Assembly: GCA_963760795.1 (NCBI GenBank) | Contig: CAVXEP010000002.1 | Coordinates: 64,001 to 128,000 of the forward strand | Origin: an uncultured delta proteobacterium | GTDB lineage: Bacteria; Desulfobacterota; Binatia; UBA9968 | DNA length: 64,000 bases | Direction: 5' to 3' | Translations under genes and position numbers: made by a program | Notes under the pieces: generated by a model | Database searches by the model: none | What the model was told of the DNA's origin: nothing | What the model saw: the letters and a program-made list of their open reading frames with translations, nothing else | Part shown: positions 6,352 to 56,711 of the stretch, piece by piece | Layout of the letters: every line of letters begins with the position of its first letter | Numbering within the stretch: position 1 is the first letter of the stretch

Positions 6352-7305
6352 GTGGCTAGCTCCAATGGTGCGCGGTCGATATTGGATCTGATCGGCTCCA
6401 CCCCCGTCGTAAAACTCAGAAGCCTTCCCGGAAAAGACGACGCCGAAGTGTGGGCCAAAATGGAATCCTTCAATCCGGGCGGATCGGTCAAGGACCGCAT
6501 TTGCTTGCACATGATCGAGACCGCCGAGCGCCAAGGCAAGATCAAGCCCGGCGCGACCATTGTCGAGTCCACCAGCGGCAATACCGGTATCGGCCTCGCG
6601 TTAATCGCGGCGGTCAAGGGTTATAAATTGATCCTTACCATGCCCGATACCATGAGCGAGGAGCGCCGCAGCCTGCTTTCGGCCTATGGCGCGCATTTGG
6701 TTCTTACACCGGACACCAAGGGCATGGGCGGCGCGATTCACAAAGCTGAAGAGCTGCTCCAGGAAAACGGCGACTTCTACATGCCGCAGCAGTTTAACAA
6801 TCCGGCCAACCCGGAGATTCACCGCAAGACCACGGCGGTTGAACTGCTCAAGCAATTCAAGCGCATCGACGCCTTTGTCGCCGGTGTCGGCACCGGCGGC
6901 ACCATTACCGGTGTCGGTGAAGTGCTCAAAGAAAAAATGAAAGGCGTCAGAATCTGTGCCGTCGAACCGGCGTCCTCGCCGGTGATTTCCGGCGGCGAAC
7001 CGGGATATCACAAAATCCAGGGCATCGGTGCCGGCTTCATTCCAGCCGTGTTGAACCGGGATATTCTCGACGAAGTGATCCTGGTAACCGACGAGGAAGC
7101 AACCCATCACGCTCGCCGACTGGCTGCCGAGGAAGGCCTGCTGGTTGGGATCTCATCGGGCGCCGCCTGCTGCGCCGCGTTAAAAGTTGCGCAAAAACTC
7201 GGCAAAGGCCATGTGGTCGTCACCCTTTTCGCCGACAAGGGCGAGCATTACCTGAGCACCGATCTTTTTAGCGACAAACGATGGACGCAAAGTTCAGCCA
7301 GCTAA
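6352..7305 (+). CDS. cysK: Cysteine synthase A
   Basis: [17 protein letters not shown]-lysine motif, [22 protein letters not shown]. Confidence 0.95.
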
Positions 7306-8093
7306 CCGAGATCCTGCGGCAATCGGAGCGTGCGCTGGTGGCGTTCTCCGCCGGCGTCGATTCGACATTTTTGTTGAAAGCCGCGCATCTCGCCTTGGGC
7401 GATGGCGCCATCGCGTTGACCGCTTCATCGGCATCCGTGCCACCAGGCGAGCTTGACGCGGCCAAGCATTTCGCCGCCAGCTTAGGCTGCCGCCATATCA
7501 TCCTCGACTCACACGAAATCGACAATCCTGCCTACGCGCAGAATCCGGTCAATCGTTGCTTCTTCTGCAAAGACGAGCTCTATCGGATCTGCCGCGGGCA
7601 AGCGGACAGGATGGGGATCGCAACCATCGTCGATGGCACGAACTTGGATGACCTCAAGGATCATCGGCCAGGGCTGCAAGCGGCGGATCAATGGCGCGTG
7701 CGCCACCCACTGGTCGAAGCCGGCATGACCAAGGACGACATTCGCCGCTACAGCCGTGAACTGGCTTTGCCGACCTGGGACAAACCGTCAAGCCCCTGCC
7801 TGTCGTCGCGCTTTCCCTATGGCACCGCCATCGATCTGGAAAAACTCAAGAAGGTGGGCGCCTGCGAGGTGTTTTTGAAAGGATTGGGCTTCCGTGAGTT
7901 TCGCGTGCGCTATCACGGCGATCTGGCAAGAATTGAAGTCAACCAGAACGAAATCGACCGGCTCTTCGACAAGACGATCAGAGACGCGATCGTCACACGT
8001 TTCAAAGAGGTGGGATTTAGTTTCGTGAGTCTCGACCTACAGGGCTTCCGTAGCGGCAGCTTGAACGAAGGTCTCAAAGCGCCGGCACATTAA
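7281..8093 (+). CDS. larE: ATP-dependent sulfur transferase LarE (PP-loop)
   Basis: [10 protein letters not shown]-loop, [27 protein letters not shown]; overlaps the cysK stop. Confidence 0.9.
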
Positions 8094-52045: not shown

Positions 52046-53035
52046 ATGCGCCATTTATGTCGGATGATATTCCCTCTCGTGGCATTGATCGTCGCGATGC
52101 CAGGCGCGGGCGCCCACGCGCAGGACAATCCGTACCGTATCGAAGAGGGTTGGGCGAAATTCCCCGATGGCAGAAAGTGGGGATCCACGTCCGCGGTCGA
52201 CGTCGATCGGGACGGCAACATCTGGGTTTTTGAGAGATGCGGCGAGCGCACCTGTGCCGGTTCGAACCTTGCGCCGATATTCATGTTTGATCGGTCCGGC
52301 AAGCCGGTGAAATCGTTTGGCGCAGGATTGTTCGTGTTCCCTCACGGCATGCATGTCGACAAAGACGGCAACGTGTGGGTGACTGACGCAGAGGGAAAAG
52401 ACGGCAAGGGCCACCAGGTTGTCAAATTCAGCCCGGATGGAAAGGTCTTGCTGGCCCTCGGAAAAGCGGGTGTTACAGGAGACGGCCCGGACACCTTCAA
52501 TCGGCCCTCGGCTGTCGTCACCGCTCCGAATGGCGACATTTTCGTCGCCGACGGACATGGCGGTGATTCCAATGCGCGCATCGTTAAGTTCTCGAAGGAC
52601 GGAAAGTTCATCAAGGCGTGGGGAAGAAAAGGGTCGGCCCCGGGCGAGTTCGCCGATCTCCACGCCATTGCTCTCGATTCCACAGGGAGGGTGTTTGTCG
52701 GCGACCGCGGCAACGGCCGCATCCAGATTTTCGACCAGGACGGCAAATTTCTCGGGGAGTGGAAGCAATTCGGCCGGCCGAGCGGGATCTTTATAGACCG
52801 GAACGACATAATTTATGTGGCCGATTCCCAGTCGGATGCGAAGCGAAACCCCGGGTTCAAGCGGGGCATTAGGATCGGCAGCGCCAAAGACGGTTCAGTG
52901 CACGCGCTGATTCCAGGCGTCGGAACGGAGCCGGACAAAGAGTCCGTGCCGGAAGGCGTGGCGGCGGATACCATGGGCAACGTATACGGCGCGGAAACCA
53001 GCGCCAACGATTTGAGGAAGTACGTCAAGAAGTAG
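52046..53035 (+). CDS. NHL-repeat beta-propeller (peptidyl-alpha-hydroxyglycine amidating lyase-like), secreted
   Basis: Repeated PHG/PS..D..GNVWVTD, FVADG, VGDRGNGRIQIFD motifs. Confidence 0.85.
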   Translation: MRHLCRMIFPLVALIVAMPGAGAHAQDNPYRIEEGWAKFPDGRKWGSTSAVDVDRDGNIWVFERCGERTCAGSNLAPIFMFDRSGKPVKSFGAGLFVFPHGMHVDKDGNVWVTDAEGKDGKGHQVVKFSPDGKVLLALGKAGVTGDGPDTFNRPSAVVTAPNGDIFVADGHGGDSNARIVKFSKDGKFIKAWGRKGSAPGEFADLHAIALDSTGRVFVGDRGNGRIQIFDQDGKFLGEWKQFGRPSGIFIDRNDIIYVADSQSDAKRNPGFKRGIRIGSAKDGSVHALIPGVGTEPDKESVPEGVAADTMGNVYGAETSANDLRKYVKK

Positions 53036-53129
53036 GCGGGGAACTCCTTACTATTTGCTCCTGACCTTCGTAGTGAAATCTTTCATTCTCAAGTTTTTGC
53101 GGCTTCGCCGCGATGGGATCTTCCGGCTA

Positions 53130-53305
53130 TTTCTATTGTGCCAGCATTTTTTCTGGGCTCGATGACCTCCGGCGGAGAATCGAAGATTTCTTTGACCAGC
53201 GCTTCAAGCTCTTCGCCGGAGGTCACCTTGACCTCCATCCGGCCTTTTTTCGCTTCGGCCAACGCCTCAGGGTCGCTCATGGTCTTGAGAAAGGCGTCCC
53301 GTAAG
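53130..53305 (-). pseudogene. 3' fragment of a Bug/TctC tripartite tricarboxylate transporter SBP
   Basis: LRDAFLKTMSDPEALAEAKKGRMEVKVTSGEELEALVKEIFDSPPEVIE; 5' part absent. Confidence 0.6.
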
Positions 53306-53309
53306 ATTC

Positions 53310-53468
53310 ATGCCACGACCGACTTGTCCAGCGTAACCTCCTTTGACGGCAGCGACTGGCGGGATTCCCTCTATCAGTTTACGCGATCTCTTGGCTTTGA
53401 GCCGCCCGGCCTGTTCCGTTGCGAGCATCCACCCATTCGGAAGGAAGGCGAGGTCCCACGGGTTGTTC
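53310..53468 (-). pseudogene. Internal fragment of a PQQ-dependent sugar dehydrogenase (GSDH-like)
   Basis: Manual translation NNPWDLAFLPNGWMLATEQAGRLK..IEGIPPVAAVKGG; no start or full ORF. Confidence 0.5.
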
Positions 53469-53512
53469 GTGCTCGTAGTTTAGACACACCGATTTTTCCG
53501 ATTATTTAAATA

Positions 53513-53525
53513 AATCAAAAGCTTG
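53513..53525 (+). promoter_or_regulatory. IHF consensus site with upstream AT tract
   Basis: AATCAAAAGCTTG matches WATCAANNNNTTR exactly; preceded by ATTATTTAAATA. Confidence 0.5.
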
Positions 53526-53545
53526 CGTACCCAGATTTCTACTTT

Positions 53546-53687
53546 ACAGCTCTTGAGGTTTGGGTAGACAGCTGTTTTTGCAGGCCTGGGTAAGCTGTAT
53601 TAAATTCATAAATCAGCTCTACATCTATTGCGACCCAGCTGAATCGCTGATAGAAAGACAGCTCTAACGCAGGATGTTTAGAGCTGA
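53546..53687. repeat. Helically phased array of seven WSAGCTSW boxes (22-23 bp period)
   Basis: AGCT at 53548, 53570, 53593, 53615, 53637, 53660, 53682; spacings 22,23,22,22,23,22. Confidence 0.85.
53628..53656 (+). promoter_or_regulatory. Putative dndB-like promoter TTGCGA-N17-TAGAAA with extended -10 TG
   Basis: 17-nt spacer contains box 5; box 6 overlaps the predicted transcription start. Confidence 0.4.
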
Positions 53688-53703
53688 CGAGTAAAGAAGG
53701 ATC

Positions 53704-54812
53704 ATGAAACTTACTTTTCCTGTCATAAGAGGAAGCATGGGTAGGCGACAGTATTATTCGCTCCTGGTTCCGCTTTCAGAGATTCCTCATTTATTCAAAT
53801 TTAACGATTGGGCAGGCTGTACTCCGGAATTGCAGGCGCAAAGGATTCTGAATAAGGCAAGGGTTCCGGATATCACGAGCTACATACTCGAAAATGATGA
53901 TGGGTTCCTGTTTTCATCTATCACCGCATCCTACTCTTGTCCGGTAAAGTTCACTTCTTCAGCAGAGAACGCTGACGTTGGCACTTTAGAGATGGAGCTC
54001 GAAAACCTGGAGTTTATTATCAACGATGGCCAGCATCGGTGCGCGGCGATTGCTGCGGCACTCAAAGAAAATCCTGCGCTTGGGAAGGAAAAAATCTCGG
54101 TGCTTCTCTTTGAGACGGAAAGTATGGAACGGCTTCAGCAGATGTTCTCAGATTTAAATCGATTCGTGCAGCAGACGTCAAAATCGCTAGGGATGCTCTA
54201 TGATCGTCGAGATAACCTTTCCGCGCTCACAATGGAGCTGGCCGAGCAGGTCGACGTATTCCGACACATGGTGGAGAAAGAGAAAGTAACGATTCCGCGG
54301 AGGTCCCCAAGCTTTTTACCATCTCGGCTTTATACGAAGCGAACGAAGAATTGCTGGGTAAAAAAATCGCTGAACAGGGATCACCGGTGTACGGAGAGAT
54401 TCTCAAGACGGCTGTCGAATACTGGACAGAGCTTTCGCAGATCATTGGTGACTGGCAAAAAGTCAAAAATGGCGAACTTAGCGCTTCCGAACTCCGCCAA
54501 GAGAAGATCAATACCCATGCGGTTGTTTTGCGTGCGCTGGGAGGCGTTGGCAAAACGTTACTCGAAAAATATCCTGGGGACTGGCGGGGAAAACTCAAAC
54601 TTCTCGAAAGGCTTGATTGGCGGAAAACCGTAGATAGTAGCGCGAATCCTCTGTGGGATGCGGTATGTATCACCGCGGGCTCAGTCGTCTCCAACAGACA
54701 GGCACGAGCAGCTACTTTGGCGGTCTTGTTACGAGAAATCGGCGAATCGCCAAACGGAAAAATGACACACAAAGAATCTGCGGAGGTGACTAGTGCGCAG
54801 GCGACTGAATAA
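53704..54812 (+). CDS. dndB: DndB-like DGQHR-domain protein (about 369 aa after correcting one frameshift near 54308)
   Basis: FPVIRG.MG.RQYY, AQRILNKARVP.I..YI, FSSITAS, INDGQHR, QQMFSDLN; adding one C in the CCCC run restores SPKLFTISALY and continues to DWRK..PLW. Confidence 0.85.
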
Positions 54813-56711
54813 TCGAAACCACCGTAAAAATCCTACCGTTGCCGATCGGCAGGGAGCTGCCGGGGGCGCTCTCAGCGTGGTTAGTGCCGATGCTGCGGAG
54901 GATCGATCTACAACTCGCCTGTGGCAGTTACTTCCAACTGCATGGAACATAATCCGGCCCTACTGGTCCTCGGAGGACCGCTGGGCGGCGTGGGGGCTGC
55001 TCGTTGTCGTGGTCGCGCTCACCCTCGGGATGGTTCATATCAATGTGCTCTTTAGTTATTGGAATAACGACTTCTTTAGCGCTCTTCAGAATAAAGACCA
55101 ATCATCCTTTCTCCACCAGTTGCTTCGCGTTTCGTGGCTAGTAGGTCTGTATATCTTCGTCGCCGTCTACCAGCTTTACCTTAACCAGATGCTCGACATC
55201 CGCTGGCGGCGCTGGCTTACCGAGCGATACCTCCGCGCTTGGATGGCCGATGGCGCTTATTATCGAATGCAGCTCGAGGCGCGTGAGACCGACAATCCCG
55301 ACCAGCGCATCGCCGAAGACGTTCACCTGCTTGTTTCCCATACCCTCACCCTCCTACTGGGAGGGTTGCGGGCGGTGGTGACGATGATTGCCTTTGTGGG
55401 GATTCTCTGGGCGCTCTCCGGAACGCTCACGGTCCCGCTTGGCTGGTTCTCTCTCACTTTGCCCGGCTACTTGGTATGGGCGGCCATCTTGTACGCTGTC
55501 GGCGGCACGTGGCTCACCGACCGGATCGGCCGCCCGCTCGTGCGGCTGAACTTCGACAAGCAACGTTGTGAAGCCGACTTCCGGTTCGGCCTGGTGCGCT
55601 TTCGCGAGAACACCGAGGGGGTAGCGCTCTACCGCGGCGAGGCGGACGAGTTACGTTCTTTCCGCGAACGGTTCGAAGCGGTAGTGGCCAATTGGTGGAA
55701 CATCATGCGCCGACAGAAGCGATTGACCTACTTCACCGCTGGCTACGGCCAAGGGGCGTGGATTTTCCCGTCCGTCATGGCGGCGCCGCGCTACTTCCGA
55801 GGCGAGATTGCACTCGGAGGGCTCATGCAGACGATCGGGGCTTTCGGCCAGCTACAGGCTTCGCTTAGCTTTTTTATCGACTCGTATAAGACGATTGCTG
55901 AATGGTGCTCGGTAGTCGAGAGGCTCTCCGGGTTCGAGCGCGCGCTAGAACGCGTGCGCATCCAGGCGGCGACTGAAGGAGGCGTCCGGCGTGTCGATGG
56001 CGGCACTGCTCACATAACAGTGGAGGGGGTGGATCTCCATCGCCCCGATGGTCAGCCGCTCATCGCGAATGTGAATCTCTCGCTCCAGCGCGGCGACACA
56101 GTTCTTCTGGGGGGCTCTTCCGGGTCGGGCAAGAGTACGCTCGTTCGTGCCATCGCGGGAATCTGGCCTTTTGGCCAAGGTGAGATCCGCCGATCGCGCG
56201 ACGCTCGGGTTCTCTTTCTTCCGCAGAAGCCTTACCTGCCGATCGGTACGCTCCGGGAAGTGGTGAGTTACCCGATGCCAACGGGTGGGTTTGATGACGC
56301 GACACTGCGCGAGGCGCTGGACTGGCAGTCGGGCTCCCTGGGTTCGCCGAACGGCTCAGCGAGGCTGGCCATTGGGCGCTCCAACTTTCCCCCGGCGAAC
56401 AGCAGCGCATCGCCTTTGCCCGCGCGCTGGTGCAGAAGCCCGAGTGGCTCTTCCTTGATGAGGCGACCTCGGCAGTGGACGAGGCTACGGAGGCGCGTCT
56501 GTATCGACTGCTGCGCGAGCGGCTTGCCGACACGACTGTGTTCAGCATCGGTCATCGAGCGACCCTGCGCGCCTTCCACGCTCGCCAACTTTTGGTGCGG
56601 GCCAATGGGACGGGACCTTCCTCTATCGTAGAGGTGACCGCGGTACCGGAATCGGCTCGAGGCAATGTGGCCATTCCACTGCATGCGAAAGTCGCTGCAC
56701 TGGCTGGGTAA
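54793..56711 (+). CDS. Fused ABC permease/ATPase of YddA/BacA-like (ABCD-related) type; frameshift near 56320; start uncertain
   Basis: PYWSSE, DNPDQRIAED, EADFRFGLVR.RE, GSSGSGKS, PQKPYLP; LSPGEQQR and FLDEATS in the second frame. Confidence 0.85.

Follow-up and report, generated by a model that had tools for sequence, protein, structure and literature searches.

Among the Dnd proteins only DndB has a regulatory role, and the way in which it recognizes DNA is known from a single footprint in Salmonella. In the accessible portions of the published accounts, Salmonella DndB is an autorepressor with footprints on its own promoter (PMC4507180), DndB is an ATP-dependent negative regulator of the ParB superfamily (PMC10853773; PMC6435447), repression by DndB depends on ATP, and a DndB-like protein binds both ATP and GTP (bioRxiv 10.1101/2025.10.10.680097; PMC10853773). 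The dndBCDE operator of Salmonella enterica Cerro 87, as the accessible text of He et al. 2015 gives it, holds two TACG-N10-CGTA palindromes within ~70 bp that are footprinted by DndB (PMC4507180). Here we describe an array of seven AGCT-cored boxes, set at a step of about 22 bp, directly upstream of a dndB gene in a 64,000-nt stretch of DNA (the whole of which is called the window below) from an uncultured delta proteobacterium of the Binatia lineage (GenBank assembly GCA_963760795.1, contig CAVXEP010000002.1, positions 64,001 to 128,000). The array is a real control element that is conserved across phyla, and we read it, with a probability of roughly 0.7, as a multi-site autoregulatory operator that would be coated cooperatively by DndB.

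An AGCT array in 22-bp register

The AGCT cores of the array start at positions 53548, 53570, 53593, 53615, 53637, 53660 and 53682, with steps of 22, 23, 22, 22, 23 and 22 bp; an earlier note on this DNA had given the same coordinates and spacings, and our recount reproduces them exactly, as it does the seven 8-mers. Numbering the boxes from the ATG, so that box 0 is proximal and box 6 the most distal, these 8-mers are ACAGCTCT (box 6, 53546..53553), ACAGCTGT (box 5, 53568..53575), TAAGCTGT (box 4, 53591..53598), TCAGCTCT (box 3, 53613..53620), CCAGCTGA (box 2, 53635..53642), ACAGCTCT once more (box 1, 53658..53665) and AGAGCTGA (box 0, 53680..53687), the last being the reverse-complement type of box 1. 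The intergenic region that holds them (53510-53703) has a G+C content of 42% and the window one of 57%. AGCT occurs 202 times in the 64 kb, and the densest 140-bp stretch is the array with its seven copies, the runner-up holding four. In the whole genome (6,581,560 bases) there are 22,495 AGCT, or 0.0034 per base, which is near the expected frequency. When these were chained at steps of 21-23 bp we obtained 21,942 singletons, 267 pairs, four triples and one seven-chain, namely the dndB array, as compared with 231 pairs, 2.4 triples and 2.6e-8 seven-chains under a random model. Since the pairs and triples fit that model and the seven-chain does not, the array is non-random against its background; it is also the only chain of four or more at this spacing in the genome, where ~3e-8 were expected.

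Tandem Repeats Finder reported no repeat over the array at a minimum score of 30, and only the short cores recur, so the array is not a tandem duplication. The earlier note's view that it is neither this nor a CRISPR array (clustered regularly interspaced short palindromic repeats) is thus upheld: CRISPR repeats measure at least 23 bp and are separated by unique spacers, and the core here is 4-8 bp long with a period of 22 bp. Iterons and other tandem repeats, which are direct repeats conserved over the whole 17-22-bp unit beside a rep gene, are ruled out by the null result of Tandem Repeats Finder and by the low spacer identity of related arrays given below. The one match in a search of Rfam (E <= 1, 52900-54000) was a C/D-box snoRNA model, whose 18.7 bits fall short of the gathering score of 36, and we reject an RNA element because a promoter consensus sits within the array and the spacers are unconserved. 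The description "helically phased" holds approximately, the mean step of 22.07 bp over 137 adjacent spacings in 33 arrays corresponding to ~2.1 turns of 10.5-bp DNA. That the ATG lies exactly one further period on is true of the window but a coincidence, as in relatives the start codon stands anywhere from 15 to 99 bp past the last box.

A scan of species-representative genomes gave 33 loci with relatives of the window DndB that are 48-96% identical over the N-terminal 205 residues, in metagenome-assembled genomes (MAGs) of Binatia or 'delta proteobacterium', Acidobacteriota, Anaerolineales, Rhizobium, Bradyrhizobium and others. Upstream DNA is available for 32 of these loci. In 22 of them a chain of at least three AGCT at a strict 21-23 bp stands directly before dndB, and nowhere else do the 4.5-8.6-kb loci contain one. 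When skipped periods are allowed, and the extra small open reading frame (ORF) that precedes dndB in two loci (L021 and L032) is taken into account, three to seven boxes in one 22-bp register are found in 28 of the 32. Periodic AGCT upstream of the closest DndB homologs, the check that the earlier note had proposed, is therefore conserved, and carriers of the array include Binatia-type, Acidobacteriota, Chloroflexota and Alphaproteobacteria MAGs. The small ORF of L021 and L032 (~400 bp 5' of dndB, in some Acidobacteriota) begins MSKQQV, encodes ~120-130 amino acids as judged by position, and lies between array and dndB, so that the array stays at the operon promoter and not beside dndB itself.

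The array is also carried by a cultured bacterium, Neorhizobium sp. SOG26, on a complete 15.4-kb plasmid, where boxes lie at -172, -150, -129, -107, -62, -40 and -17 before a DndB, encoded by CDS 6839-7912, that is 46% identical. On this plasmid (L179, NZ_CP025514.1, 5866-13355) the array lies in the 277 bp that separate a TIR-domain gene from the divergent dndB, and the genes downstream include one for CopG and two for N-6 DNA methylases; together they form a small defence island on a plasmid that is typed as non-mobilizable, although its record annotates a MobQ relaxase.

In all five other genomes that were searched, every four-box match fell at the site upstream of dndB, and a reversed control pattern gave none; counting the window genome, the array is single-copy in six out of six genomes, and a regulon, for which a second array would be expected, is rejected accordingly. 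Across loci the genes upstream of dndB are variously SnoaL, carboxypeptidase-regulatory-like, NMT1, resolvase or TIR genes, and those downstream encode an ABC (ATP-binding cassette) transporter in the Binatia-type group and a protein of ~790 residues in most others, leaving dndB as the sole constant neighbor of the array.

A scan blind to gene content, for five AGCT at exactly 22 bp, led to the same gene. It returned at least 143 loci (at least 114 metagenome stretches and 29 viral-contig stretches), and 133 of those listed are tandem repeats with an 11- or 22-bp period and a spacer identity of at least 0.45, as against 0.24-0.38 in arrays related to ours. Ten listed loci had unlike adjacent spacers, four of these being tandem repeats of 44 or 66 bp; among the matches listed this leaves six, five of which adjoin a DndB gene. 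The five are not all independent, because L097 shows no difference from L024 in the part that was compared and L058 closely resembles L002. The sixth (L126) is a 692-nt metagenome contig that bears, at ~280-400, six AGCT at 22-bp steps with unlike spacers and AAGCTT-like flanks. This fragment holds no ORF of 60 or more residues and no DndB and is too short to place; it represents either another, unexplained type of phased AGCT array or a match by chance.

The lattice is regular in relatives as well. Seven boxes are present in 13 of 33 arrays, and the 137 adjacent steps comprise 116 of 22 bp, 15 of 23 bp and 6 of 21 bp. The oriented box consensus is approximately wwACAGCTCTt, with 6-8 bp conserved per box. 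Most copies of box 0 read gAGCTg (29 of 34 arrays have G before the core and 24 of 34 have it after), box 1 is mostly cAGCTc (25 of 32 on each side), box 2 again mostly gAGCTg (17 of 28 before and 20 of 28 after the core) and box 3 mostly cAGCTc (21 and 17 of 27, respectively); CAGCTC and GAGCTG being reverse complements of each other, box orientation tends to alternate. An alignment of 14 Binatia-group upstream regions shows which columns do not change: the AGCT of boxes 3, 1 and 0, the GCTGT of box 5, the TTG of a putative -35 hexamer and an upstream AATCA, with spacers that drift. The last of these belongs to an AATCAA motif (53513..53518, + strand) ~30 bp 5' of the first box, in which A50, T52, C53 and A54 of the alignment are invariant or nearly so. 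Its consensus is approximately TAAATCAATAnCTTA, and it is kept in the 14 loci while the DNA around it is not; another protein might bind there, or the motif might mark the left boundary of a mobile cassette. An extra AGCT (53520..53523) stands out of register 28 bp before the first box and recurs at 27-28 bp only in L001 and L002.

We located putative promoters in the 33 arrays with our own looser -35/-10 scan, which rests on consensus only, and the best sigma-70-like pair falls within the array. In the window the putative -35 hexamer is TTGCGA (53628..53633, + strand; TTGACA in most relatives), with box 3 ~10 bp 5' of it, and the putative extended -10 is TGaTAGAAA (53648..53656, + strand), which lacks the final T of TATAAT. 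The spacer between the two is 17 nt and contains box 2, and boxes 1 and 0 lie at and past the expected transcription start, respectively; a Shine-Dalgarno-like AAGGA, read from the sequence, follows at 53697..53701 (+ strand). The -35 begins 52-54 bp before box 0 in 12 loci, the window included, and 59-63 bp before it in eight loci of other phyla, where the hexamers abut boxes (e.g. AGCTcTTGACA-17-TAGTAT). Another example of a pair found by the scan is TTGACA-18-TATTAT. A 340-nt contig from an RNA library (X15, 33 differences) spans 53543-53878, to be read with the knowledge that a DNA-run contig ends at nearly the same place and that DNA can occur in RNA libraries.

The orphan DndB clade and its predicted fold

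The window dndB (53704..54812, + strand) is read in two frames. The ORF at 53704-54633 covers positions 1-201 of the Pfam DndB family PF14072 and that at 54351-54812, in another frame, positions 228-336, with a 1-nt gap near 54305/54306 relative to three close relatives (L001-L003). Short-read contigs from four public soil runs hold the extra base at this point (one of them differs from the window at a single position in 376 nt), which makes an assembly error, or else a very recent change, the probable cause of the frameshift. The downstream transporter gene, 94% identical to its L001 ortholog up to about residue 509, runs on in the wrong frame from there, near 56320, so that the ATP-binding domain is cut; with two frame breaks inside 2 kb, the assembly seems to contain indel errors. 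Interrupted dndB frames are also seen in four of the 31 relatives in which the start of dndB is present (L002, L025, L032 and L033). Intact orthologs score above the cut-off of 328 bits for DndB (TIGR03233/PF14072), with 332.5 bits for L001 and 334.3 bits for L018; the two frame-shifted pieces of the window protein score 218.9 and 81.5 bits against the family profile.

DndB of this type does not travel with the phosphorothioation genes. DndC (TIGR03183) was not found in any of six array genomes (the window genome, which is 89% complete, and G401-G405), so that the expected linkage to dndCDE is missing, while dndC directly adjoins dndB in all five canonical genomes checked. In a sample of 401 Pseudomonadota genomes ten carried DndB at E <= 1e-20, one of them the array-bearing G404; seven strong canonical DndBs, whose identity to the clade is 34-43%, are not preceded by an AGCT chain, and two canonical loci have TTACGTAA or TACGTA palindromes like the published Salmonella site. 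A maximum-likelihood tree places 28 orphan-type DndBs in one clade (support 100/99), apart from the seven canonical ones, and 24 of the 28 have three or more boxes. The tree omits L002, L025, L032 and L033 (interrupted frames), L015 (cut by the end of its contig) and L011 (which lacks its 5' end). With arrays in the orphan clade and no AGCT chain in the canonical group, operator type co-varies with the protein at the level of clades. Among 401 genomes sampled from the phylum of the window, the window genome was the sole match to DndB.

A plasmid search gave 974 records with distant DGQHR/DndB-like proteins at 24-32% identity, 829 of them typed as conjugative; the matches are mostly from Klebsiella, Enterobacter and Escherichia, and many of those listed are single 'DGQHR domain-containing protein' genes. 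Three plasmid DGQHR/DndB proteins (L180, L181 and L182; 27-32% identity, some fused) fall outside the clade and were set aside, L180 and L181 being without an array. Longer proteins of 448-558 amino acids, with 100-200 extra C-terminal residues, are 47-55% identical to the window DndB (P0003-P0011 and P0015).

The DGQHR pentapeptide (D108, G109, Q110, H111 and R112) is invariant in 27 sequences of the orphan clade. An AlphaFold2 model of the intact ortholog L001, built from an 87-sequence alignment, has a predicted local distance difference test (pLDDT) of 92.7 and a predicted template-modeling score (pTM) of 0.83; in this predicted model residues 13-158 adopt a ParB/Srx fold that is followed by a helical domain. 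The N-domain matches PadC (ParB-like; Z 8.2, root-mean-square deviation (rmsd) 3.0, 101 residues aligned), pNOB8 ParB-N (Z 6.2) and sulfiredoxin (Z 5.7), values of Z that are moderate, and the ParB-family KorB (PDB 8qa8, titled 'transcriptional repressor') can be superposed on residues 18-289 (Z 6.2, rmsd 4.7, 175 aligned). Foldseek places ParB, Noc and KorB in its top ranks at weak E-values of 4.6e-3 and above, and the Protein Data Bank (PDB) holds no sequence relative of DndB among solved structures. The relation of DGQHR domains to the ParB/Srx fold, on which the earlier note had drawn and which the accessible part of a previous study proposes (PMC4619093), is thus supported by the fold of the predicted model, with moderate Z.

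When two copies were modeled together, a symmetric dimer was predicted through the N-domain, including the DGQHR region, with a score of 0.76 as compared with 0.00 for the best of three controls, a contact agreement between runs of at least 50% and a partner pLDDT of at least 77. Among 30 proteins solved as one-chain pairs, 20 attained this mark, as did 1 of the 23 whose structures are single chains; these counts hold only roughly here because our own alignment was used. As ParB-family dimers have already been solved, the result may also reflect likeness to them or memory in the model.

The genes downstream of dndB differ between lineages. In the window it is followed by a gene for an SbmA/BacA-type ABC transporter (54793..56631, + strand) that overlaps its end by 20 nt and belongs to the same operon; the flanking ORFs of the window that were scanned comprise an NHL-repeat protein, an unknown 123-residue ORF and this transporter. 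In most non-Binatia loci (within L016-L031, e.g. L018:5139-7484) the next gene encodes the ~790-residue protein, which has no Pfam, NCBIfam or PADLOC match and more than 2,260 homologs, every source-named one of the 120 listed being a 'hypothetical protein'. Its AlphaFold2 model (pLDDT 79) matches the GHKL ATPases Hsp90, GyrB and topoisomerase VI-B, with Foldseek E-values from 6e-10. Together dndB, the GHKL-fold ATPase and a DNA methylase make up a widespread gene trio, which looks like an undescribed defence trio of restriction-modification or MORC type.

Proposed cooperative autoregulation and its alternatives

The earlier note had proposed an operator- or centromere-like element. Its operator half is supported: the array is unique in each of the six genomes searched, tracks dndB and has a promoter consensus inside it, the Salmonella DndB is an autorepressor, and the predicted model has a ParB/Srx fold. 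From these observations we infer that DndB is the binder, as well as its stoichiometry and the sign of regulation. In such an operator, DndB dimers joined through their N-domains would contact boxes at 22-bp intervals along approximately the same face of the helix, with a slow twist (~2.1 turns per step), and neighboring dimers would bind cooperatively; the contact could be one monomer per oriented box or one dimer per palindromic core. Three to four dimers might then coat the ~140 bp that hold the -35, the -10 and the transcription start, and the coated promoter would shut off both dndB and the downstream gene fused to it (the ABC transporter here, the GHKL-fold ATPase in other phyla). Release of DndB would presumably depend on nucleotide, as reported for canonical DndB, and regulator and operator would form a self-contained portable cassette outside the dndCDE phosphorothioation operon.

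Several observations weigh against cooperative autorepression by DndB in this form. The palindrome TACGN10CGTA occurs 0 times in the 64-kb window, so that a Salmonella-type site is absent and the recognition mode is not transferable from Salmonella. Four of the 32 relatives are without a clear array, L017 and L027 having none and L023 and L028 two boxes ~65 bp apart. Adjacent oriented pairs are opposite in 46 cases and the same in 17, with 74 ambiguous (a symmetric or odd box) and the rows being kin, and L016 and L018 have runs of five or six same-type boxes; since alternation is thus a tendency among kin and not a rule, a picture of one half-site per monomer is not secure. A stricter sigma-70 scan of 53000-54000 gave 0 promoters, and the same region 0 terminators. 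Finally, the window hexamers match the consensus at 4/6 and 4/6, and the Binatia-type -10 (TAGAAA) is without the usually invariant final T, so that the position of the promoter in the lineage of the window rests on conservation only.

A more elaborate version, which we would hold only tentatively and think improbable, sees the array as a lattice of defined length on which three to four DndB dimers on dyads that alternate every 22 bp would form a short, nucleotide-gated nucleoprotein filament and so turn a portable promoter on and off; in the original setting of dndB, the GHKL-fold ATPase and a DNA methylase its AGCT cores would have been methylation-sensitive, so that the switch would read how the DNA of the cell is modified and license an undescribed defence module, and the lineage of the window would have re-used the switch for a peptide-uptake-type ABC transporter. 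Methylation is also central to an explanation that is compatible with an operator and that we consider unlikely to a similar degree, in which AGCT (or SAGCTS) would be the target of a DNA methyltransferase and the array would read the modification state of the host DNA, alone or via methylation-sensitive binding of DndB, and thereby time the expression of the operon. Four-bp palindromes such as the box core are of the kind that methyltransferases recognize, and the neighborhood is suggestive: non-Binatia loci (Acidobacteriota, Chloroflexota and others) have dndB, the GHKL-fold protein and a convergent N6_N4-type DNA methylase, for which PF01555 was matched at E <= 1e-5 in L016, L017, L018 and L024 and not in L026 and L030 at that threshold. 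The methylase lies 5' of dndB in L028, the Neorhizobium plasmid has its two N-6 methylase genes, and in S. lividans sites that are modified close to the promoter of dndB affect dndB expression, according to the accessible part of that report (PMC6186775). On the other hand, the fullest arrays, those with seven boxes, belong to the Binatia-type group, where no methylase is adjacent. Queries with the L018 proteins found neither the linked methylase nor the GHKL partner in the window genome (which, as said, is 89% complete), so that a modification sensor is not required there; the specificity of the linked methylase is unreadable, its best solved relatives (N4/N6 methylases, with the L028 query) matching ~50 residues at E ~1e-6; and since AGCT occurs in the genome about as often as expected, nothing points to restriction avoidance.

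The centromere half of the earlier proposal fared less well than cooperative autoregulation by DndB. Here a nucleotide-gated ParB-fold clamp would load at the array as at parS and slide or spread from it, in the service of DNA organization or segregation. We find this very unlikely, even with the ParB/Srx fold, KorB, ParB and Noc among the nearest solved folds, a predicted dimer through the N-domain, which is the part that gates ParB clamps, and nucleotide binding by DndB-like proteins, as described in the accessible text of the reports above. Foldseek matches ParB at weak E-values only, each of the six genomes searched has a single array, which is chromosomal, and the array lies always exactly on the putative dndB promoter found by the consensus scan. 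A parS/ParB partition site proper, a 13-16-bp palindrome with a ParA-type ATPase, was rejected on the grounds that the boxes conserve 6-8 bp and that no ParA-type gene was found in the flanking ORFs scanned. The Neorhizobium plasmid, moreover, has a separate gene pair annotated as AAA family ATPase and ribbon-helix-helix protein, which we take to be its partition-type pair. Least probable of all, in our judgment, is that DndB is merely regulated, the boxes being bound by a host factor (a nucleoid protein or global regulator) or acting as overlapping promoter-like units that trap RNA polymerase. A decoy of this sort would suit the tendency of TT to follow CAGCTC-type boxes and of TA to follow GAGCTG-type ones, the coincidence in several phyla of a box pair and its flanks with the promoter (AGCTcTTGACA ... 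AGCTgtTAnnnT), and a 22-bp step that is near the 23-bp step from -35 to -10. However, the element spans at least four phyla and a plasmid, all of which would need to share the host factor, it is the sole array in each genome searched, a misfit for a global regulator, and in most loci boxes 4-6 upstream and box 0 downstream are without good hexamers.

Comparison with known systems

The literature searched, subscription papers being outside its scope, yielded no paper on a periodic AGCT array or on this orphan DndB clade. As far as that search reached, the array operator has not been described before, and its kind, an autoregulatory operator of DndB, is already known. What is new is a whole DndB clade outside phosphorothioation systems, a more elaborate candidate operator with up to seven boxes at a strict 22-bp step and one copy per genome, and a pairing of regulator and operator that would act as a portable cassette on differing cargo genes. 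Research on the ParB-CTPase fold is now reaching past chromosome segregation, and the array offers it a natural, sequence-defined platform on which oligomerization and nucleotide gating could be studied together; the cultured carrier, with its Neorhizobium plasmid, makes the operator reading directly testable.

The closest parallel remains the DndB operator of Salmonella which, as far as the accessible text of that study describes it, is a cis element at the promoter of dndB itself, as our array is predicted to be, and like ours has short 4-bp palindromes as its cores, which are inverted and occur more than once. The protein that binds it, a repressor of its own operon, belongs to the DGQHR/ParB superfamily, and we infer such binding for the DndB described here. 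Unlike the Salmonella element, our array has up to seven AGCT-cored boxes in a regular 22-bp lattice over ~140 bp, and no dndCDE follows.

With KorB and ParB the protein shares, in its predicted model, an N-domain of ParB/Srx fold followed by a helical part, dimerization through that N-domain and, presumably, a nucleotide switch, and KorB too represses promoters from specific sites. Their sites are of another kind, parS and OB being single palindromes of 13-16 bp as opposed to the phased multi-box lattice found here, and the match in fold is moderate (Z 6.2, with the Foldseek E-values given above). Many short sites at a fixed helical step around the promoter of the gene for the binding protein, serving both as an assembly platform and as an autoregulatory operator, are a feature of R1 parC/ParR and of iterons. 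In parC/ParR, however, a ribbon-helix-helix protein binds 11-bp direct repeats that are conserved over their full length, and the role is in plasmid partition, whereas our array conserves only 6-8 bp in every 22 bp, shows a tendency to alternating orientation and has no gene for partition or replication beside it. The C-protein operators of restriction-modification systems, in which a pair of helix-turn-helix dimers binds two adjacent palindromes, time a defence-type operon and move horizontally, and a small regulator-operator cassette that is tied to a defence-type operon and subject to horizontal transfer is what the dndB array resembles as well; it differs from them in pairing a protein of predicted ParB fold with a lattice of seven sites.

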